49,330 nt of DNA, taken from the UHGV virus genome UHGV-0139780; one strand, given 5' to 3'. Below, piece by piece: positions 8,428 through 45,850 of this stretch. The notes under the pieces were generated by a model. That model worked only from the letters and a program-made list of their open reading frames with translations. It had not been told where the DNA came from and made no database searches. Both the position numbers and the translations under genes were made by a program. Numbering within the stretch: the first letter of the stretch is position 1; each line of letters starts with the position of its first letter. The stretch comes from a virus.

Positions 8428-8910
8428 ATGGCGATAGTTGTGAAAGCTGATTTGTCAAAAATCCCCTCTATTTCAGGAAATAATGGTTATTCACTTCGTT
8501 GTGAGGAAGTAAAGATAAACGGTGAGTCGGCATATTGCAGTTACTCCGTTTGCCAGCATACCATTCTTGCCTTCAAAGAAAACCGTCTTCCTCGAACTTC
8601 ATTCCAGTCGTGCGCAACCGCTATCAAAGCAGGCAAATGCAAGGCGTTAAAAATGATGGTTGGAGAGATTCGTAAAGGAGAATCTCTGTATTTCGAAGAT
8701 ATGACCGCGCTCATTAAGGAGGTTGAAGAACGGAATAAACAAGCCAGAACTATAAAACGAAAACGTGACAGTGTAACGATTAATAGCATGGTTAAGAAGA
8801 GCACCACATCACAAACAGCGATCACTGACGTGTATGCGGCGTTGCTTGAAGAAACAACAAAAGAAACACATGAGCAAATCGATCAACATATGGAGGCAAA
8901 ACAACAATGA
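8428..8910 (+). CDS. hypothetical protein (Cys-containing, basic C-terminus)
   Basis: 160-aa ORF; no motif recognised. Confidence 0.4.
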   Translation: MAIVVKADLSKIPSISGNNGYSLRCEEVKINGESAYCSYSVCQHTILAFKENRLPRTSFQSCATAIKAGKCKALKMMVGEIRKGESLYFEDMTALIKEVEERNKQARTIKRKRDSVTINSMVKKSTTSQTAITDVYAALLEETTKETHEQIDQHMEAKQQ

Positions 8911-9376
8911 AAAAGTTGATCGCACTTAAGCATAAGCTGGACGAAATGAAAGCTATGGGAACCAATGCAAAAAAAGAGGCATTGGCCAACATGGATGACT
9001 TCGAGCAAAGCATGGTTTCATTGATGCTCAACCCTTTCATTCGTTTTGGGGTAAAGAAATACAAAGTGACCGGAGTTCCCTGAGTACTGGAAGCCTAAAA
9101 CGCGAGCTAAGTTAGAGCGTTTAGGGTTGGTTGCAAACGTTTCTGAAACGAAGTGTTCGGCCAACTACCAGTTAACTGATAAAGGGAAAGTATTGCTACA
9201 GCAATTAGTAGAATCAGGAGTGTTAAAATGATTCCATACATCTCATTAGCTTTTATGGCGGGCTTCCTTATCGGCTTCGGCATCTGTCGTGACTTAATTA
9301 AGCAGGAACTTAAAACCAAAACACTGTGCATCGGAAAGCGTGTGTATCGAGTAGTTCATGAAACAAAGGTTAGAAA

Positions 9377-9667
9377 ATGAGCAATTTAACTTCTTGGGAA
9401 TGGTGGTTGGTCACCTATTTCTTAGCGGCCGGAGTCGCATTCGCCTTTTACGTAGGTCAGTTAGTCGTAAAACTGCTGCTGATGAAATTTGCCAGTCATA
9501 AACGTATCGATGATGGTCTGTGGCGTCTTGGCACCCTGGTGGAAACTCGCTACGGGCAACTTAAGGAGAACGAAACCATTACTATCCAAGCGAAACGATT
9601 CACTGCCACCATCACAAGAACACCTGATCGTAGAGTGGCCTTGATCAAAAAAGTCACAACCGAATAA
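9377..9667 (+). CDS. hypothetical small membrane protein
   Basis: 96 aa with N-terminal hydrophobic helix (WWLVTYFLAAGVAFAFYVGQLVV). Confidence 0.35.
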   Translation: MSNLTSWEWWLVTYFLAAGVAFAFYVGQLVVKLLLMKFASHKRIDDGLWRLGTLVETRYGQLKENETITIQAKRFTATITRTPDRRVALIKKVTTE

Positions 9668-9872
9668 AAACACGACGATAAGTATTTACTTACCTATCCT
9701 TTGTGTATAAGATGACTTTGTTTTCGTTGAGACGCGACTGTTTGAACTTAAATACAAGTGCAAACGAAGAAGTCTATCTGGCAGTAGCCTAATAAGCCAA
9801 ACACCAGCGAGGTCAGTTTCCAGCCTCGTTACCGAAATGGAACACACTGAGCGAGTGTGATTGCAGAACGCA

Positions 9873-9978
9873 GGAGGGAACATGAGTGTTCCCTCCGATG
9901 AAGTAACAGGATGGGCGGTTGGTATTTCAACTCCATATGACTCCCGGATTCTTAGCCTCTGACCGCCCATCCTGTTAC
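9873..9978. repeat. two adjacent perfect hairpins (10-bp stem/4-nt loop; 17-bp stem/41-nt loop) in an ORF-free region
   Basis: ggagggaaca tgag tgttccctcc at 9873-9896; gtaacaggatgggcggt at 9904-9920 pairs with accgcccatcctgttac at 9962-9978. Confidence 0.6.
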
Positions 9979-10053
9979 GTCATTTTGTTCAATTATGTCG
10001 TTTATACTGGGTTAAAAAGCGGCGACGTAGCCCGGCTGGTATGGTTAGCCAGC

Positions 10054-10176
10054 ACACAACGTTGAGGCCATTACATTTTTATCAATTCTAAGGTTCTGTT
10101 CACAGAGATACCGGCGAGCGTTGATATGTAACATGTTGGGCAAACATTCAATCGGAGTAGTGGCCTCAACGTTGTG
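10054..10176. repeat. 16-bp perfect inverted repeat with about 90-nt loop upstream of the tRNA cluster
   Basis: cacaacgttgaggcca (10054-10069) and tggcctcaacgttgtg (10161-10176). Confidence 0.6.
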
Positions 10177-10440
10177 AAGACAGGATAGTTGTGTAGGTTT
10201 AACCACTGTTGCCATTGGTGCCTGTTTTCACAACAAATGATTCCATACATCACATTGTATAAATTATAAAGTAGGTGCTGTCCTCAGAAACATCATCTAC
10301 TTAAAGATTTAGCCTTCTATTGAGCGAAGTCGAAAGCGTCTGGCACTAACGTAAAGTGCAAGTAGCGGTGCGTTTCCTGGCAGAAACTAACACCGCCGCG
10401 ATTGGCACTGTTGAGTAATAAATACTGTCAGTGCTGAATT

Positions 10441-10515
10441 GATGGTGTAGCTCAGCGGCAGAGCAGTTGGCTGTTAACCAACTGGTCGGTGGTTCGAATC
10501 CACCCACCATCGCCA
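10441..10515 (+). tRNA. tRNA-Asn (anticodon GTT)
   Basis: Cloverleaf by eye: acceptor gatggtg/caccatc, anticodon loop ctGTTaa, T-loop ggttcgaatcc, encoded CCA. Confidence 0.8.
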
Positions 10516-10520
10516 ATTTA

Positions 10521-10608
10521 GGGGAGTTAGTCCGTAGAGGTAGCGGGGTAGACTGTAAATCTACTGTCATTGCGACTCGGATGGTTCGACTCCATCACTC
10601 CCCACCAA
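10521..10608 (+). tRNA. tRNA-Tyr (anticodon GTA), long variable arm
   Basis: Acceptor ggggagt/actcccc, anticodon stem-loop tagac-tGTAaat-ctact, long variable arm, T-loop ggttcgactcc, CCA. Confidence 0.8.
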
Positions 10609-10611
10609 ATT

Positions 10612-10687
10612 GCCGGTTTAGCTCAGTTGGTAGAGCAGTCGCTTTGTAAGCGAATGGCCAGCGGTTCAAGTCCGTTAACCGGCACCA
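10612..10687 (+). tRNA. tRNA-Thr (anticodon TGT)
   Basis: Acceptor gccggtt/aaccggc, D-arm gctcagttggtagagc, anticodon loop ttTGTaa, T-loop ttcaagt, CCA. Confidence 0.65.
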
Positions 10688-10695
10688 CAACAATT

Positions 10696-10782
10696 GGAGA
10701 GTAGGGAGCATGGTGCTCAAACGGTCTTGAAAACCGTCCCATTGCGCAAGCGATGATGGTTCGATTCCATTACTCTCCGCCA
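10696..10782 (+). tRNA. tRNA-Ser (anticodon TGA), long variable arm
   Basis: Acceptor ggagagt/actctcc, anticodon stem-loop acggt-ctTGAaa-accgt, long variable arm, T-loop ggttcgattcc, CCA. Confidence 0.75.
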
Positions 10783-10784
10783 GC

Positions 10785-10862
10785 CACAGCGTTGAGCGGT
10801 TTGGCCTTTTAATCACCCAGATTAAGACTCCGCTAACATAAACCAGACCGCTCAACGCTGTG
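10785..10862. repeat. 16-bp perfect inverted repeat with 46-nt loop just after the last tRNA
   Basis: cacagcgttgagcggt (10785-10800) and accgctcaacgctgtg (10847-10862); arm sequence resembles the 10054/10161 repeat. Confidence 0.6.
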
Positions 10863-10936
10863 ATAGACAATTACTGCAGACGTTCTTACCATAGCTTACT
10901 AACATCCCAGCAACTCTTCTGTCAGCGCAAAATTCA

Positions 10937-10958
10937 AAGGGGCTTCGGCCCCTTTTTT
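10937..10958 (+). terminator. rho-independent terminator
   Basis: aaggggc ttcg gcccctt followed by tttttt. Confidence 0.7.
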
Positions 10959-10998
10959 GTAACTGAAATAGTCAAATCGAACTTTGTAAGGAGAAGTA

Positions 10999-11244
10999 AT
11001 GACGATCACTATCTACGGACGAGATAACTGCTCTTACTGCAAACGTGCGGTCGAGCTGGCAAAGCAACTAAAGGGGCATGGCTGCGGTGATTATGAGTAC
11101 ATCGACATCACCACAGCCGGTATCGACAAGGAAAAACTAAGTGAAATTGTTGGTAAACCGGTAGAGACTATCCCACAGGTACTGATCGACGGCCAGCCGA
11201 TTGGCGGATACACAGAACTGGCTGCATACGTCAGCACCCTCTGA
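10999..11244 (+). CDS. glutaredoxin/NrdH-like redoxin
   Basis: 81 aa with CSYC active-site motif in a thioredoxin-fold context (ITIYGRDNCSYCKRA). Confidence 0.7.
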   Translation: MTITIYGRDNCSYCKRAVELAKQLKGHGCGDYEYIDITTAGIDKEKLSEIVGKPVETIPQVLIDGQPIGGYTELAAYVSTL

Positions 11245-11248
11245 TTTT

Positions 11249-11272
11249 AACGGCTCACAGGAGCCGTTTTTA
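11249..11272 (+). terminator. rho-independent terminator
   Basis: aacggctc acag gagccgtt followed by tttta. Confidence 0.65.
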
Positions 11273-11323
11273 TTCCCACCAAACTCACTCCCGTTTCCCT
11301 TAAAATTCAAAAAACAACGTCAA

Positions 11324-11356
11324 AATGATTCCATACCTACTATGTATGGAATCATT
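11324..11356. promoter_or_regulatory. lox/dif-like candidate recombination site: 13-bp perfect inverted arms around a 7-bp spacer
   Basis: aatgattccatac ctactat gtatggaatcatt, about 100 bp upstream of the tyrosine recombinase gene. Confidence 0.4.
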
Positions 11357-11454
11357 ACTGAAAATGAGTTACTTTTACTCTTGATCCTATAAGAATCTAT
11401 GCCTAATATACTGTTTACTTATACAGTGCAACGGCGTAACTCGGTGATTGTCAT

Positions 11455-12558
11455 ATGAAAAATAGCTTTGACAGAGCACGCGCTGCGGAGAACACCTCAA
11501 AAGAGGCGATTGAGTATCTCGAAAGAGCATCTCAAATGCAGGCCGTTATGATCTCCCAGGTCAGCAATGACATGAGATTCTCGGACGCATTCATGTTATT
11601 CACTCGCTTATCTCTGCTGATAACAAGACGTCGGCCAGAGATCGCTGTTCATTGTATTTTGATACATGTTTTGCCGCACATTGCCGACGTAAAAGTAAGT
11701 GATATTAATAGGTTCATGGTGAACCAACTGGTCAACCCACTAATACTGGATGGCAAAATTGTTATGGGCCGCCGCGTTTTCTCTCTGATGAAGCAGTTCC
11801 TCAGCTGGTGCGCCTTCCAGGGGATGATCGACGTGTCACCGTTAAACGATATGTCACTGAACAAAGTTGCCGGTGGCGCAAAGCCCACGCCTCGCGAGCG
11901 GAAGCTGACCGACGCAGAGGTATGGGTGTTCTGGAATATATGGGACTACTTCAATGTGTGCGCTGGTACAAAATGGGCGGCCAGGCTATGCCTTGTATCG
12001 GCAAGACGACCTGACGAAGTTCTGCGGGCTAAAAAAAGTGAGTTCAATCTTAAGCGTGGGGTTTGGAATCAAGGCAAGAGAAACAAGTCAGCACGTGAGC
12101 ATTCGCTGCCTTTAAGCACATTAATGCGCACATGCATTGAAGAATTGTTCGAATACGGCAAAGACAGCCAGTGGCTTGTGCCTTCGAATAAAAAAATCGG
12201 GAAAGACCTTCCTATGTCTAAAGTGGCAATAGCCCAGGCATTACGTCGTATTCTGGACCGACCAGAACTGATGGAGCTTGAGCCATTTACACCCCGAGAT
12301 TTGCGCCGTACTGCGCGTAGTTACTTCCCAGCATTAGGCATAAGCCAGGAGGTATCACGCAAAATCATGAACCACAGTCTTGAGGGGATAGATCGGGTCT
12401 ACGATCGACACGATTATATGGACGAGATGCGAGACGCCTTAGAAAGTTTCTCGACGTACATCGCATCAATCGTAGAGCAACCGGATTTAGACGAAATTGA
12501 CCACAAATTCAAGGGAGATCGTCTATCAACAGAGCTTATTCGTGTAAATTTTTCATAG
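11455..12558 (+). CDS. tyrosine site-specific recombinase (integrase/resolvase family)
   Basis: C-terminal catalytic-domain signature: ARLCLVSARRPDEV, TPRDLRRTARS, NHSLEGIDRVYDRHDY; N-terminal start uncertain. Confidence 0.6.
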   Translation: MKNSFDRARAAENTSKEAIEYLERASQMQAVMISQVSNDMRFSDAFMLFTRLSLLITRRRPEIAVHCILIHVLPHIADVKVSDINRFMVNQLVNPLILDGKIVMGRRVFSLMKQFLSWCAFQGMIDVSPLNDMSLNKVAGGAKPTPRERKLTDAEVWVFWNIWDYFNVCAGTKWAARLCLVSARRPDEVLRAKKSEFNLKRGVWNQGKRNKSAREHSLPLSTLMRTCIEELFEYGKDSQWLVPSNKKIGKDLPMSKVAIAQALRRILDRPELMELEPFTPRDLRRTARSYFPALGISQEVSRKIMNHSLEGIDRVYDRHDYMDEMRDALESFSTYIASIVEQPDLDEIDHKFKGDRLSTELIRVNFS

Positions 12559-12939
12559 AGACTTTATGGCCTCAACAACCTTTTGTGATGCGCCTTTCTC
12601 TTTACCGAATCGCTCGTTATATGCAGCAAGAACCTGTTTTTCGTCCTCGTTAAGAGGAGCGGTGCCTTCTTTGTATAAAAATGCTGCGAGTTCAGGTTGG
12701 CGTTCTTCCAGAACCATCATCATAAGGCGACTTGGCTCAATATCCAGTGCCAGCGCCAGCGGACGAACCTTATCGATAGGCAAAGGAATTTTGCCACTTT
12801 TAATTAAAGAAAGGTTGTTGGCATTTTTATAACCAATAAGTCTGGCTATTTGTGCCTGACTCATAGATGAGGATTCAATCAGCCCTGCAATAACAGCAGC
12901 ATAGCGACTTTCAATAAATTCAATTTTGTTTTCAGACAT
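12553..12939 (-). CDS. XRE-family helix-turn-helix transcriptional regulator (repressor-like)
   Basis: HTH segment SQAQIARLIGYKNANNLSLIKSGK; convergent with the recombinase gene; AT-rich intergenic region upstream. Confidence 0.6.
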   Translation of the reverse strand: MSENKIEFIESRYAAVIAGLIESSSMSQAQIARLIGYKNANNLSLIKSGKIPLPIDKVRPLALALDIEPSRLMMMVLEERQPELAAFLYKEGTAPLNEDEKQVLAAYNERFGKEKGASQKVVEAIKSL

Positions 12940-13189
12940 CGTTATAACCTTTGCGCGTTTAATTCTCTCTGGTAAGTGCTTACCGATATTACATCAAAGG
13001 TTAGGGTTGTAAAGCTATTATCATTTTTTCGGCAGGCACTTGTAAGACCGAGCAAAGGTCCATGCATGGAGAAGAACTAGCCCAAAATAGGTAAGAAAAT
13101 TAACTTGCATCTGATATAGATGTATTCAGTATTGATACAAATTTTAGTAGTATTCCTTACCATAGTATAAGTTAGAATGGATTGATTGA

Positions 13190-13402
13190 ATGAAAACCAC
13201 TATTTCCAGCCTAATCGCTCTTGAGACCGGACACGTACAGAAATTAGCTGATGAGTGTGTAGCTGACATCCTCACCGATCTTCCGAATGAGCAGATTCAG
13301 GTTGGTTTGAATGACACAACTGGCTTTATATTCGAACTTAACAACAAACGCTTCACGCTTCTCAATACCGGCTCCGGGTCTTTAGCCGTCAGAATCTGTT
13401 AA
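13190..13402 (+). CDS. hypothetical small protein, divergent from the XRE regulator
   Basis: 70-aa ORF; a 9-bp inverted repeat hairpin follows at 13415-13447. Confidence 0.3.
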   Translation: MKTTISSLIALETGHVQKLADECVADILTDLPNEQIQVGLNDTTGFIFELNNKRFTLLNTGSGSLAVRIC

Positions 13403-13500
13403 CCCCTCTTCTCCCTGCGCGAATGGCTTAGTTCCCTGTTCGCGCAGTGCTACATTAAACACACTAGTAAATAATTTGTTTTCATAACAAAGGATTAGCC

Positions 13501-18167: not shown

Positions 18168-21100
18168 ATGAAGGCTCTGATGGTTCGAACTGACTTCTCT
18201 CTTGGGGAGTCGGCTCTAAAAGCAGAAAACGCGGTGAAGATTGCCAGAGAAGCTGGCTACACCGCTGTAATTTCGGCAGATAGCATGAATATTGCGAGTG
18301 TTATTCCACTACAACGTGCCGCTGGTGACGACATGGCGGTTATTTGTGGTGTGAAACTAAACATTGTTGATGATCCCACATACGAGCACCGGGCTAAACT
18401 TGCTAAAGAGTCTATGGGATGTATGGAATCATTAGAGCGTGGGCGGAACTACTCCTTTACCGCTCTAATTAAAAATGAGCAGGGATATCGAGACATCTGC
18501 GAACTAATGACGGCGGCCAACACACGAGAACAGTTCTACTTTGTACCGCGTCTCTCGCTCGAACAGTTGGTTTCTACATATGCCAAAGGCAACATCATCC
18601 TGCTAACTTCCGACATCGGTAGCGTGTTCCAACGCAACGATTTTGCAAAAATCATAAGCACATTGATTACAGCGGGTGGAAAAGACAACTTCTATAGTGT
18701 GATTTATCCGCACCCTACCCCATTCTACGACCAGATTAACGTCCGGGCGATGAAAGTCGCCAGCGCACTGAAAATAGAGCCAGTAGCGTTTTATCCCGCT
18801 TATTACGAATCGATCGACGATGCAGACATTAAAGACATTGCGCACATGGTTACGAACAACATCAAAATCGACCAGCCGCATCGTCTGCGTATCCCCCACC
18901 AGCGAGATAACGCCGTCAATGGTCGCCGCCATCTCCTTGAGGCGCTTAAAGCCTTCTCCGTTCGCATGGATGTGCCGGTAACAGCTGCAATGGCCTCAAC
19001 AACGCAGGATACCATTATCGATGCCTGCACATGGCGCTGGCATGAATTGCCACCAGCACTGCCAAAGATGGCAGACGACGAGCCTGCAACTCTGATGAAA
19101 CTGGCCGTTGCTGGGCTGCGTAAACGTCTTACCACAAAAGAGTTTGGCTACACACCACCGGCTTCTGAGAACAGGGTTTATGTTGAGCGACTTAAGTACG
19201 AAATGGATACGCTGACTCGCCTGGGATTCTGTGGTTACTTCCTGATGGTACGCGATCTGATGAATCACAGCCGTGAAACTGGCATTCCTGTCGGGCCTGG
19301 TCGTGGTTCCTCTGCTGGCTCTCTGGTGGCATGGTGCATAGGCATAACCAACGTCGACCCTATCCGTCACGGTCTTCTGTTTGAACGTTTCATCAACCCT
19401 GAGCGTCTCGACTTGCCAGATGCGGATTTGGACTTCAGCCAGGCACGTCGCCATGAGGTGATCGAGTATCTGAATGAACGCTACGGCGAAGATTACGTTG
19501 CAGGCATTCCGAACTTCACATATCTGGGCGCAGCCTCTGCACTACGTGACACTGCTCGTATTTATGGTGTGGAGTCCGCAGATATGGCGGTATCAAAAGA
19601 ACTGAAGAACGTCGAGGATGATAGCCTTCCACTGGAGGAGCTGCGCGAACAACTGGCAAGTCTCGACAAATACGCGACAAAATACCCTGATGCATTCAAT
19701 GCAGCCTGCAAGTTACAAAGCCTTATGCGTGGCTTTGGTAGACATGCGGCAGGGATGATCGTAGCAGGTGTTCCTCTGACAGAACGTACACCGGTTGAAC
19801 GACGTGGTGACGCGCGTTGTATCGCATTTGACAAGCGTTACTGCGAGGCTATGGGCCTAATTAAGCTGGACGTGCTTGGCCTGGCAACTCTCGATTTGCT
19901 CGATAGTGCAAAACGCTACATTAAAGAGAACACAGGTGAAGATATCAATCTTGATGCCATATCTCTTGAAGATCGCAAGGTGCTGGATGGTTTTGCTGCT
20001 GGGTACACTCAAGGTGTTTTCCAGCTTGAATCAGGCCCAATGCGCAAGCTGCTTAAAGATTTAGGTGGTGGAATTGAGCCAATGAGCTTTAAAACGGTTG
20101 TTGCTACGACTGCGCTCTTCCGGCCGGGACCAATTCAGTCAGGCATGTTGGATGATTATGTTTCTGTCGCCAAAGGCTTTATGACGCCGGAATCATTACA
20201 CCCCGTTCTTGATGAACTTACCGCAGAAACAAATGGCGTGATTCTCTATCAGGAACAGACGATGAACGCGACTCGATTGCTTGCTGGCTTCACAATGGCT
20301 GAAGCTGACGGTGTGCGTTCCGCAATCGGTAAGAAGAACATGGAAAAAATGAAGAGCATGGGCGAGAAGTTCATCGTTCAGGCTCAAGCTGGCTGGATAG
20401 ACGTTGAGCTGGAAGATGGCACTACACAGCGCATTCACCGTGCGGAACATTTTAAATGCGAAGACGGAACCCTGAAAACTGTCGAAGAAGCACTTGAGCA
20501 CGGAGCAAAACTACCTATAAACGCAGTACGCGTTACAGCGTCACATCCAGGGCTATCAGAGATGAAGGCGAAGGAGATCTGGACTGCATTCGAGAAAAAT
20601 GGTGCCTACCAGTTCAACAAATCACACTCTGTTGCTTACTCCTTAATCAGTTATCAATCTATGTGGTTGAAAACTCATTATCCCGCAGAGTTTTTCGCTG
20701 CTGCTCTCACTATTCTTGGCGAAGATAAACACCAGGGGCTGGTTAAAGATGCGCTGACCTATGGTATTCGCGTATTGCCACCAGACGTTAACGTGTCATC
20801 TAACCGAATCGAGATCCGCACGCTTGAAGATGGCAGCCAGGTGCTGTATGCGCCCTTCTCTGCTGTGAAGGGGTGTTCTGAGAATGGCTGCCAAGCCATC
20901 ATGAGAGCGCGAGAAAAAGTTGGCGGCAAATTCGAGTCACTGGCGCAATTCGAAGAAGCTGTCGAGAAACGTTCCTGTAATAGTCGAGTGCGCGAATCAC
21001 TGCAAAAAGTAGGTGCGTTTGCATCCATAGAGCCAGGTAGTCTGCCAGCAACTGATCCAGAGCGTCTCCGCGACCAGGCAGAATTGATGGGAAACCTTGT

Positions 21101-29579: not shown

Positions 29580-29627
29580 ATGCAAACTGACTGCGGCTCG
29601 TTCCGCAGTCATATTTCATTGTCGTCA

Positions 29628-30159
29628 CCGCTGACAGCATACACAATCAATTACCGCTGATAGCATATCGAGAGTTTATCTCACCGCTCACAGCATACTT
29701 TACTCGATTTTTTACCGCTGACAGCATACTTAAGACATTGCATGAATAATGTGTACCGGTATGGGTATAACCAGAACAAAATTACCGCTGGCAGCATACG
29801 AAGGTCTGACATATACCATTAATTACCGCTGATAGCATATCCAAACAAAAATTCCTCAATAAAACACCGCTGACAGCATACGTTCTATCAGGGAGCAGCA
29901 GGCAATAAATGCCTTTCACTACAAGCAATCAGCGCAATGGCAATAGAATGTTAGTGAGCGCAAACCTATATGGAATGCACTCTTCGAGGTTAGTAACCAC
30001 TGGGTAGGTATGACAGAGCATTGAGTGGTGATAGATGTTTTACCGCTCACAGCATACGTTTATCTCACTATACCGCTAGTAGCATATCTCTAACCGTTCA
30101 CAGCATACTTTTCAGAAAAATAGCCGCTGATAGCATACATTTCACCGCTGACAGCATAT
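29628..30159 (+). repeat. iteron array (12 direct repeats, consensus CCGCTGACAGCATAC) downstream of repA; incA-like
   Basis: Copies start at 29628, 29654, 29684, 29715, 29785, 29826, 29867, 30043, 30073, 30094, 30124, 30145; same orientation; irregular spacing. Confidence 0.75.
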
Positions 30160-31253
30160 CAAAGCAGTTTGAGACTATTGGAAAGGATCTCAATCATCTT
30201 GATATTTTCAGGCGTCAAATTCTGCGAAAGTTCGGTTATCTTGTTGATAATGTTCTGTTTGGCATCAATTTCCCCAGCTTTCTCATCTGGTTTTTTGGGT
30301 TCGATGTCTTCAGGTTTTGGCGGTGCGACTTTGAGTTTTGGATTGCGGCTGTGAATCTGGATATAGATCGACCGCCCTCGCTTAATCTCGCTGTATTCGA
30401 GATAGCCCAAATCTTGAAGAACTTTTAAGCCGTTACGTATAGTCTGATTCTGCGAGCTGACATTCCTGCTACTCAAATTGAGTCGCGCACGCAATCGAGC
30501 AAGCGATACCGGCGCAGGCTTGGTTGGAAGACTTTCGATGAAGGTGTACAGAGCCTGTGCTGTTTCTTTGCGTGGTAGCTTATTGATAACCTTTAACTGC
30601 AAAAGAACCTTATGGTCAAAGCGATATAGTTCGGCCAGCTTCGGTTCTGCATAGAATACCACCGTATCTTTCTGCTCGTTGTAGTCCACGCTATTGATGA
30701 GGTGCACCATCAGAAGCGAGATCTTGTTAGAACCGTCGACATTCTTTTCTTCATACGTTCTCTGGAAAGACAGAGTGGTACGCATAATCTTCAAAAGACT
30801 GTTTGTAAGCCGGTCGCGGAGTGTTTTGCGGATCTGTGACGATGGATAGCCACAAAACTTCGCAAATTTCGTGATGCTTAACTCGACACGACCGTTAGGT
30901 TCGCCGTATTCTGCCAGCGAACGCACGACGCCCACCCACGTTTTGAAATCATGATCCATGTCGAGACGAGGACCGGTTATCTTGATATCGGAATAGCCTT
31001 CAGAACGGGCTACTTCGAGCTGAACAAGCTCCTTTGAAGCATCGATCTCATTTGGCTTGTTACGCTTGCTGTATTTTGTCCCCTTGAGCGTGGGCACGAA
31101 CAACCCCAGCCGCATCAACGCAATTGGTTGGACTGTATTGTTGCTATTAGGGACAAGTTCCCCTGTGTACAATTCAAGGGAACCTTCTTCAAAGTTGTCG
31201 AGATTATCTTCTACTTCTTTGTTATTTTTACCTTTTTTATTTTTTGTGGACAT
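30159..31253 (-). CDS. repA: iteron-binding replication initiator (RepA-like)
   Basis: Large basic ORF flanked on both sides by iterons; start set to the internal ATG at 31253 (MSTKNKK...) because the track extension overlaps the upstream iterons. Confidence 0.6.
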   Translation of the reverse strand: MSTKNKKGKNNKEVEDNLDNFEEGSLELYTGELVPNSNNTVQPIALMRLGLFVPTLKGTKYSKRNKPNEIDASKELVQLEVARSEGYSDIKITGPRLDMDHDFKTWVGVVRSLAEYGEPNGRVELSITKFAKFCGYPSSQIRKTLRDRLTNSLLKIMRTTLSFQRTYEEKNVDGSNKISLLMVHLINSVDYNEQKDTVVFYAEPKLAELYRFDHKVLLQLKVINKLPRKETAQALYTFIESLPTKPAPVSLARLRARLNLSSRNVSSQNQTIRNGLKVLQDLGYLEYSEIKRGRSIYIQIHSRNPKLKVAPPKPEDIEPKKPDEKAGEIDAKQNIINKITELSQNLTPENIKMIEILSNSLKLL

Positions 31254-31274
31254 GTGGACACCTTTGTCATTCAA

Positions 31275-31375
31275 CCGCTGACAGCATACTTGATTTGCCG
31301 CTGGCAGCATACCAAAAACAGTTGGCAGCATACGGCGAACCGTTGACAGACTATCAATTACCGCTGGCAGCATAC
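31275..31375 (+). repeat. iteron cluster upstream of repA (3 full and 2 partial copies); incC/origin-like
   Basis: ccgctgacagcatac at 31275, ccgctggcagcatac at 31298 and 31361; partial copies at 31322 and 31339. Confidence 0.7.
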
Positions 31376-45456: not shown

Positions 45457-45494
45457 AAACCCTACTTTAAATTAACTTTAAAGTAGGGTTTTTA
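45457..45494 (+). terminator. rho-independent terminator (15-bp stem)
   Basis: aaaccctactttaaa ttaac tttaaagtagggttt followed by tta. Confidence 0.6.
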
Positions 45495-45659
45495 TTAAAA
45501 ATATCTCACAAAAAGATAAATGTATTCAACTACAGCGATACCAATAACAACTTTTATTAATAAGTTGCTAAATTGTTCTTTTTTTGATGATTCCATTTTC
45601 CTTGCCAAAAAAAACATGAACGTACAATATTATAAATAACCTTTATTGAAGGTTATTTT

Positions 45660-45675
45660 TGTGATGACGATCACA
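45660..45675. promoter_or_regulatory. CRP-like palindrome TGTGA-N6-TCACA
   Basis: tgtgatgacgatcaca in an AT-rich intergenic region about 175 bp upstream of the acidic-protein gene. Confidence 0.35.
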
Positions 45676-45850
45676 AAAATAATATGTGTAAATTTATTTG
45701 CTTATTTGTAAAGCAGTCAGACTCACATGATCATCAGGAATATAACCCGTTCATGACTAACTCGCCTGGATTTAACACTTTTCCGCCTAGTAGGTTTAGT
45801 CAAAATATAATCAACTAAACGCAAATATAACGAAAGAAAAGGAGACTTAC

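Follow-up and report, generated by a model that had tools for sequence, protein, structure and literature searches.

The stretch analysed here, called the window below, is a viral sequence of 49,330 nucleotides (UHGV virus genome UHGV-0139780). The element in question occupies positions 11,324 to 12,939, where a perfect palindrome lies upstream of a gene for a tyrosine recombinase, itself convergent with a gene for a helix-turn-helix regulator of the XRE type. A preliminary description, made from the letters of the sequence, had proposed that palindrome and recombinase form a Cre/lox-like dimer-resolution or cyclisation system on a phage-plasmid. The comparative analysis presented here follows up that proposal and adds three features that had been missed: single copies of the palindrome arm elsewhere in the window, a LexA box on the recombinase promoter, and the finding that the XRE gene does not belong to the module. 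The features at the centre of the argument are the following.

11324-11336, plus strand: left arm of the palindrome (AATGATTCCATAC), read from the sequence
11337-11343, plus strand: 7-bp spacer CTACTAT, the presumed crossover region, 7 bp long in all 62 family loci and in all 114 IMG/VR sites
11344-11356, minus strand: right arm, the exact reverse complement of the left arm, read from the sequence
11455-12558, plus strand: tyrosine recombinase of 367 residues, identified by Pfam family PF00589, its catalytic residues and its predicted fold

The palindrome at 11324-11356 reads AATGATTCCATAC-CTACTAT-GTATGGAATCATT, and its 13 + 7 + 13 bp with arms that are exact reverse complements are just what the preliminary description had reported; the gap to the ATG of the downstream recombinase open reading frame, put there at about 100 bp, measures 98 bp. 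In layout it is a simple site, with two inverted arms of ~13 bp, a spacer within the 6–8 bp range and a recombinase gene close by. Perfect palindromes with arms of at least 13 bp and spacers of 5–9 bp are expected at a rate of ~0.004 per window, and an arm length of 13 was reached in two of 100 first-order Markov simulations; the palindrome is therefore not a chance product. The window holds one other palindrome of such size, at 45457, which is an ordinary terminator: two strong palindromes (45457-45491 and 45634-45680) lie there in an AT-rich intergenic stretch as terminator-like hairpins followed by T runs.

The recombinase matches the PF00589 Phage_integrase profile over residues 172-320 (38.9 bits against a cut-off of 27.1, E = 1e-9) and carries the catalytic set R185, K211, R284, H307 and Y316. 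The preliminary description had pointed to an alignment as the way of checking these residues. In an alignment of 19 family members, R185, K211, R284 and the tyrosine nucleophile Y316 are present and invariant, and H307 is retained in 17 of the 19, with glutamine in two Nissabacter/Serratia-type members (P0016, P0019). The motif TPRDLRRT, in which arginine had been suspected of replacing the conserved histidine, proved to be a family trait: the position is Arg281 (PRDLRRT) in every member. Three of four outgroup proteins have HDLRRT and the fourth, the P4-type integrase P0119, has arginine. Arginine or lysine at this position is known in some active relatives. To judge from its conserved residues and predicted fold, the protein looks active.

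An AlphaFold2 model of the recombinase (mean predicted local distance difference test score 81.4) displays the C-shaped two-domain clamp of a core-binding and a catalytic domain, preceded by an extra helical N-terminal segment of ~60 residues. Its best matches in the PDB are Tn1549 integrase (residues 82-397), DNA-bound lambda integrase (75-356), XerA, XerH and IntI, with E values from 7e-7 to 1e-4. The recombinase-like repressor SroF (9rgl) stands at rank 34 of the same Foldseek search, and Cre chains appear from rank 36 on, with E values of 0.019 or worse and 10–12% identity. All of the ~150 homologues come from Enterobacterales. The next relatives outside the family (25–34% identity) are P4-type integrases bearing the arm-binding domain PF13356 (DUF4102 / Arm-DNA-bind_3), which is present in outgroups P0114-P0120 and was found neither in the query nor in any family member. 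By these comparisons the recombinase is not a member of the Cre family; its lineage is a distinct one, related to the P4-type integrases, that has lost their arm-binding domain.

What ties the palindrome to the recombinase is that the two travel together. Contigs from one genome per species were scanned; 62 of the 65 loci obtained hold true family members, and each of these 62 has a palindrome of the same geometry ~60–290 bp upstream of the recombinase gene, always with a 7-bp spacer; in 56 of them it is perfect over at least 11 bp. A pattern scan of IMG/VR added 114 sites, all with a 7-bp spacer (14 sequence variants, each specific to a lineage), and in 108 of them the recombinase gene lies 74–130 bp to the right. 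The arms follow the protein as it diverges. Recombinases with 57% identity or more to the query, found in E. coli, Klebsiella, Kluyvera, Yersinia, Buttiauxella and Chimaeribacter, go with arms of the form ATGATTCCATAC, and every one of these relatives shares the identical 11–12 nt arm core TGATTCCATAC; those 45–53% identical, from Pantoea, Rahnella, Erwinia, Ewingella, Xenorhabdus, Photorhabdus, Hafnia and Morganella, go with TGACTCCAGAC. Both clade-specific changes are mirrored in the left and right arms. Two Chimaeribacter genomes each hold both paralogous modules, with arms and spacers that differ (L012 with L056, L013 with L060). On this evidence the palindrome is very probably the target of the neighbouring recombinase.

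The third gene of the locus does not share this association.

12553-12939, minus strand: XRE-type helix-turn-helix gene of 128 residues, a backbone neighbour, with weak HTH_19 and HTH_37 matches (phrog_8)

It is indeed convergent with the recombinase gene, as had been described, and overlaps it by 6 bp. As a component of the module it did not hold up, since site and recombinase persist without an XRE homologue in most loci of the distant clade, where CobT and Grx are mostly missing as well. On Pantoea ananatis plasmid pPANA1, for example, the surroundings consist of GGDEF, H-NS and TonB-receptor genes, with XRE, CobT and Grx absent and the site kept. The site is therefore tied to the recombinase and separated from the XRE gene. 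A palindrome of this kind might in principle be the operator of the XRE protein, or else an RNA hairpin or terminator, with no relation to the recombinase. A perfect dyad is typical of helix-turn-helix operators, and the Cyrano homologue of the XRE gene, labelled a putative repressor, is expressed in the lysogen; the operator explanation is nevertheless rejected on the persistence of the site where XRE is lacking. Against a hairpin stands the conservation of partnerless single arms, at which no hairpin is possible, and against a terminator the lack of a T run 3' of the stem on the plus strand and the absence of the palindrome from the terminator scan list. Taken together, these alternatives are scarcely credible. 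A HigBA-like pairing of the XRE gene with a Gp49-family gene was also considered and rejected: the Gp49 gene lies upstream of grx and does not adjoin XRE.

The replicon on which the pair resides bears on what the recombination would be for. The 2.7 kb from 10800 to 13500 share 95% identity with Escherichia phage Cyrano (108 kb), which E. coli LF82 carries as a plasmid prophage, and match 540 plasmid records of ~100–115 kb; the window is therefore from a phage-plasmid of the SSU5/pSLy3 type, in agreement with the earlier suggestion of a phage-plasmid. No other site-specific recombinase is found among the Cyrano annotations. Of 5,426 complete E. coli genomes, 252 have the site and an equal number, 252, the recombinase gene; all copies are on plasmids, with one site per record. 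Neither a full-length site nor the recombinase gene was found on any chromosome of this set, a split half-site being too short for the site search to detect. In no family locus, contigs of 300–900 kb included, was the site ever split into attL and attR. This plasmid-only distribution, with one site per replicon, fits resolution or cyclisation and speaks against integration. It likewise bears on an integrase reading, in which the palindrome would be an attP site and the protein a true integrase acting on a chromosomal attB. The P4-type integrases are its nearest relatives in sequence, and all records annotate it as an integrase; yet the site stands intact beside the gene at every locus, the arm-binding domain is missing, and no excisionase is annotated nearby in the relatives examined. 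With the gene on none of the 5,426 E. coli chromosomes, integration is very unlikely to be the function of this protein.

The reading that we favour, with a probability of roughly 0.6, is that palindrome and recombinase constitute a self-contained, Cre/lox-like resolution module that would keep the plasmid monomeric. The Cre/lox-like system of the preliminary description thereby gains support from the conservation of the site, the co-variation of its arms and its distribution as one copy per plasmid replicon, the role itself being predicted from sequence. By analogy with Cre/loxP and other simple tyrosine-recombinase sites, each 12–13 bp arm would be bound by one recombinase monomer, and two sites would synapse into a tetramer, in which Tyr316 would cut at the edges of the 7-bp spacer and strands would be exchanged through a Holliday junction. 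In a plasmid dimer, the two directly repeated sites would recombine to yield monomers, which a low-copy plasmid prophage could partition. An equivalent reaction might circularise terminally redundant phage DNA after infection, as a possible second use comparable to that of Cre/loxP in P1. Binding, cleavage positions and biological role are all inferred. In one study, experimental tests of palindromes predicted beside Cre-type recombinase genes succeeded about half of the time (PMC10250229).

Between the palindrome and the recombinase gene, and just to the left of the palindrome, lie further conserved elements.

11302-11315, plus strand: A-rich element AAAATTCAAAAAAC, CAGAWTTnAAAWW in relatives
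11381-11409, plus strand: candidate recombinase promoter, TTGATC (11381-11386), 17 nt, TAATAT (11404-11409), read from the sequence
11409-11428, plus strand: predicted LexA (SOS) box TACTGTTTACTTATACAGTG, overlapping the -10 hexamer, the sole LexA-box match in the window

The A-rich element is kept 14–28 bp left of the arm even where the sequence farther left is unrelated, also in the Pantoea loci, and may be a bend or the site of an accessory factor. The candidate promoter, which a consensus scan scored below its threshold, is conserved among relatives from Klebsiella, Kluyvera and E. coli. In E. coli, ~25 bp separate the palindrome from the -35 hexamer downstream of it; the Pantoea-type loci have a TAGAAT promoter whose -35 position is overlapped by the right arm. 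In one E. coli record (NZ_CP061531.1, strain WEM25), an apparent ISKox3 insertion (ISL3 family) sits between palindrome and recombinase promoter, at the equivalent of ~11357-11415, and would naturally separate the site from the gene.

The predicted LexA box has the pattern CTGT-N8-ACAG, lies over the promoter and is conserved at the equivalent position in the Klebsiella, Kluyvera and Yersinia relatives and in E. coli phage PhiR41_1 (L073); it is absent from the distant clade. Its position on the promoter in the E. coli, Klebsiella and Kluyvera subgroup implies that the recombinase is probably raised in the SOS response, when the formation of dimers driven by RecA also rises. Macrophages induce the SOS response in E. 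coli LF82. In the published LF82 transcriptome, the Cyrano homologue of the recombinase goes from log2 5.6 in lysogeny broth (LB) to 10.3 inside macrophages at 6 h, a rise of ~26-fold that fits the LexA box, and the neighbouring cobT, cobS and dnaE stay at log2 3–6; the same paper reports no lytic induction of Cyrano in macrophages. In LB, in the plasmid state, the homologue is expressed at ~5 times the local background.

The exact 13-mer of the arm recurs at three further positions in the window, 9227 (plus), 10236 (plus) and 18421 (minus), each time followed by ATC.

9227-9242, plus strand: arm A (AATGATTCCATACATC), over the start codon of a conserved 50-residue membrane open reading frame
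10236-10251, plus strand: arm B (AATGATTCCATACATC), in a non-coding stretch upstream of the tRNA cluster, preceded in relatives by TTCACAACA
18418-18433, minus strand: arm D, 253 nt into dnaE, on the opposite strand

In the whole Cyrano genome these three and the two arms of the palindrome are the sole matches when two mismatches are allowed. Arm A occupies an equal position in Cyrano, Klebsiella and Kluyvera despite diverged flanks, and Klebsiella phage pJN2-26, whose recombinase gene has ~74% nucleotide identity, shows an equal arm layout in strongly diverged surroundings, as does Kluyvera. Arm D encodes CMES(L) in DnaE. The codons on either side are variable, and the distant clade has a DnaE with unrelated residues at this point, so that selection acts on the DNA and the motif dictates the protein sequence. 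All single arms are oriented towards the palindrome. They share the sequence of the core arm, with no separate arm-type sequence, and a second arm cannot be made out at any of the three; what follows them (ATCnnnn) differs from the spacer of the palindrome. They are confined to the subgroup with the LexA box, most family members having the palindrome alone.

Several explanations of the single arms were rejected. Decayed full sites would be expected to show traces of a second arm, and none is seen; the arms are conserved and not decaying. A shared peptide, MIPYI, fails because no ribosome-binding site is conserved, the frames at B and D stop after 6–10 codons, and D is antisense in dnaE. Promoters are excluded by the lack of a conserved -10 hexamer after the arms. 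A replication-terminus model, with inward-facing arms like Ter sites around dif, encounters an iteron origin ~19 kb off and arms with no resemblance to Ter. Many copies of an iteron-like repeat, ACCGCTGACAGCATAC, with GATAGC and GGCAGC variants, lie at 29626-31364; judged against the repA annotation of Cyrano, this stretch is probably the plasmid's RepA origin. A further copy of the arm, with three mismatches, lies inside the recombinase gene at 12061-12073 (minus strand), over the codons for VWNQ. Its counterparts (L008, L009 and L010 at +606, L007 at 12736) are exact in Kluyvera and Yersinia and have one mismatch in Klebsiella; they could be a product of chance under protein constraint or an autoregulatory site.

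The most attractive reading of the three single arms is that they are extra binding sites for the recombinase, with a regulatory or architectural role after SOS induction. Upon cleavage of LexA, the recombinase would occupy the half-sites at the start of the membrane protein, upstream of the tRNA cluster and in dnaE; once bound, it would control early or replication genes or give structure to the DNA that surrounds the resolution site. The notion that a catalytically competent recombinase doubles in this way as an SOS-switched regulator with dispersed sites in the SSU5-type phage-plasmids of E. coli, Klebsiella and Kluyvera is a tentative proposal, which we rate well below even odds.

Carried further, the same evidence suggests a protein that is mainly a DNA-binding regulator, for which the palindrome would be a two-arm operator and the single arms one-arm operators, recombination being secondary or lost; after SOS induction its binding would time or block the tRNA/moron region, its own gene and dnaE. 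Models for such a protein exist in the recombinase-fold repressors of SPbeta-type phages and in the C1 repressor of P1, with its dispersed asymmetric operators. Although their flanks have diverged, the single arms stay exact and in fixed places of the backbone across E. coli, Klebsiella and Kluyvera, one of them imposed on dnaE, and they are limited to the subgroup that has the LexA box on the recombinase promoter. The Pantoea-type right arm overlaps the -35 position of the promoter there, the HxxR histidine is replaced by Arg281, and SroF occurs in the fold search, though at rank 34. However, the catalytic residues, the tyrosine nucleophile among them, are kept throughout the family, the sole exception being glutamine for H307 in two members, and the length of the spacer, 7 bp, is invariant in over 170 sites, as the geometry of cleavage predicts. 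Most family members, moreover, lack single arms, and the E. coli palindrome lies ~25 bp upstream of the -35 hexamer and not over the promoter. Repressors of the MrpR/YopR/SroF type combine catalytic loss with dispersed sites; here the dispersed sites occur in one subgroup and the catalytic residues are retained. A protein that is chiefly a regulator is accordingly judged unlikely.

The interval between arm B and the palindrome (10252-11323) is a hot spot for cargo. In this window it holds tRNA genes and grx only; relatives (L002, L073, L194, L195, L007) carry there a Gp49-family gene, CYRAN_43, an AbiGi-type gene, DUF6645 or a 6-kb foreign block beside an insertion sequence (IS) remnant. CYRAN_43 is a very highly expressed moron. 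A search for the source of the foreign block of PhiR41_1 returned IS fragments alone. The tRNA cluster at 10441-10782 encodes tRNAs for Asn, Tyr, Thr and Ser; Cyrano lacks that for Tyr, and in Klebsiella pJN2-26 only that for Asn is annotated. A scan of 8800-13500 for RNA families found these four tRNAs alone. Upstream of the cluster, 9741-9843 gives a weak match to the tRNA-like part of the transfer-messenger RNA model (19.6 bits, far under threshold) and may be a decayed tRNA.

Cargo beside a recombination site raises the possibility of an acquisition point like integron attI, at which an SOS-induced recombinase would insert circular cargo bearing a single arm, the palindrome being regenerated and the single arms marking the left boundaries of cassettes. 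The hot spot itself fits this scheme, as do the hypervariable 30-bp left flanks of the site, which come in 11–17 versions within IMG/VR lineages sharing one spacer. Arms A and B form direct repeats on the cargo side, an extra single arm lies near the left end of the foreign block in PhiR41_1, and LexA control is reminiscent of integron integrases. The boundaries, however, are not where the scheme places them. Cargo units abutting the site have no arm at their left boundary, Cyrano having its five arms only, with two mismatches allowed, and CAGAWTTnAAAWW is shared between otherwise unrelated flanks, so that the edge of the cargo must be 30 bp or more away from the spacer. All three single arms stand in conserved backbone, D inside an essential gene and in opposite orientation, and the ATCnnnn after the single arms is unlike the spacer of the palindrome. 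Integron-like capture at the palindrome, tested in this way, is unsupported; with boundary arms missing and the cargo edge displaced, we regard it as improbable.

Several observations weigh against the resolution module that we favour. The spacer is near-symmetric (xTAxTAx), so that the direction of the site is set solely by spacer positions 1, 4 and 7, which weakens directionality. Three spacer sequences are found in IMG/VR in both orientations relative to the recombinase gene, and PhiR41_1 (L073 8997-9033) carries the spacer of the window inverted (ATAGTAG) in a background 96% identical, its palindrome being lengthened by 4 bp to 17-bp arms (CAGTAATGATTCCATAC). A spacer flipped relative to its own flank cannot be produced by legitimate site-specific recombination; it may have arisen by template switching at the palindrome or by antiparallel synapsis. 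With Arg281 in place of the canonical HxxR histidine, recombinase activity is not to be assumed, and a resolvase repressed by LexA would be unusual. A simple resolution model does not account for the three conserved single arms, 1–7 kb away. A search of the literature for the arm sequences matched unrelated primers alone. On the side of the module, a dif/cer-like Xer site, defined by 11-bp XerC and XerD arms GGTGCGCATAA / TTATGTTAAAT with a spacer of 6–8 bp and up to 3 + 2 mismatches, was found neither in the window nor in Cyrano, and the arms of the palindrome are unrelated to the XerCD arm consensus; no competing system is therefore apparent, though the absence is weak negative evidence.

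If the resolution reading is right, it would concern a widespread group of replicons. Phage-plasmids of the SSU5 type, with their cargo of resistance and defence genes, are frequent in E. coli (252 of 5,426 complete genomes), Klebsiella and Salmonella; we know of no description of how they are maintained as monomers, and the module is the obvious candidate. The recombinase family also occurs on large plasmids of Pantoea, Rahnella and Erwinia. At least two natural specificities (ATGATTCCATAC and TGACTCCAGAC), together with many spacers, would provide recombinase/site pairs orthogonal to Cre/lox, if they are active, and the invariant arginine in place of the HxxR histidine offers a natural experiment on what this residue contributes. 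The half-site in dnaE is a clear case of a DNA signal overriding a protein sequence and hints at a hitherto undescribed link between SOS, a recombinase and a phage replication gene. Satellite half-sites and SOS control are the parts that could set the module beyond the known kind.

Among known systems, the closest in organisation is Cre/loxP of P1, together with Dre/rox, VCre/VloxP, Vika/vox and Panto/pox, in which a tyrosine recombinase borne by a plasmid or phage-plasmid likewise has one simple site near its gene. Cre/loxP and the module both have 13-bp inverted arms around a short asymmetric spacer, lack arm-type sites, occur with a single site on each replicon and are presumed to resolve multimers or circularise DNA. 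The spacer, however, is 8 bp in loxP and 7 bp, near-symmetric, here; the protein is no Cre homologue, has arginine for the HxxR histidine and carries an extra helical N-terminus of ~60 residues; and one subgroup has a LexA box and three satellite single arms. The P4-type (DUF4102) integrases of phages and islands are closest in sequence (25–34%), with the same central and catalytic domains and the DLRRT and YDRHDY motifs, but they own a PF13356 domain and a complex attP, whereas the module has a simple palindrome and was never found integrated in 5,426 E. coli genomes. In TnpI/IRS of Tn4430 and Tn5401, the resolution site also lies directly upstream of the recombinase gene and combines an inverted motif pair with extra single copies; there the extra motifs fall within ~100 bp of the core or in the transposon ends, whereas here they lie 1–7 kb away in the phage backbone, one of them in dnaE, and neither a transposase gene nor terminal repeats are present. 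IntI/attI, finally, shares a site upstream of a LexA-controlled tyrosine recombinase gene and an adjoining region rich in cargo; it differs in that the locus described here has no attC-like cassette boundaries, a cargo edge that lies outside the spacer, and a recombinase that is not of the IntI type.

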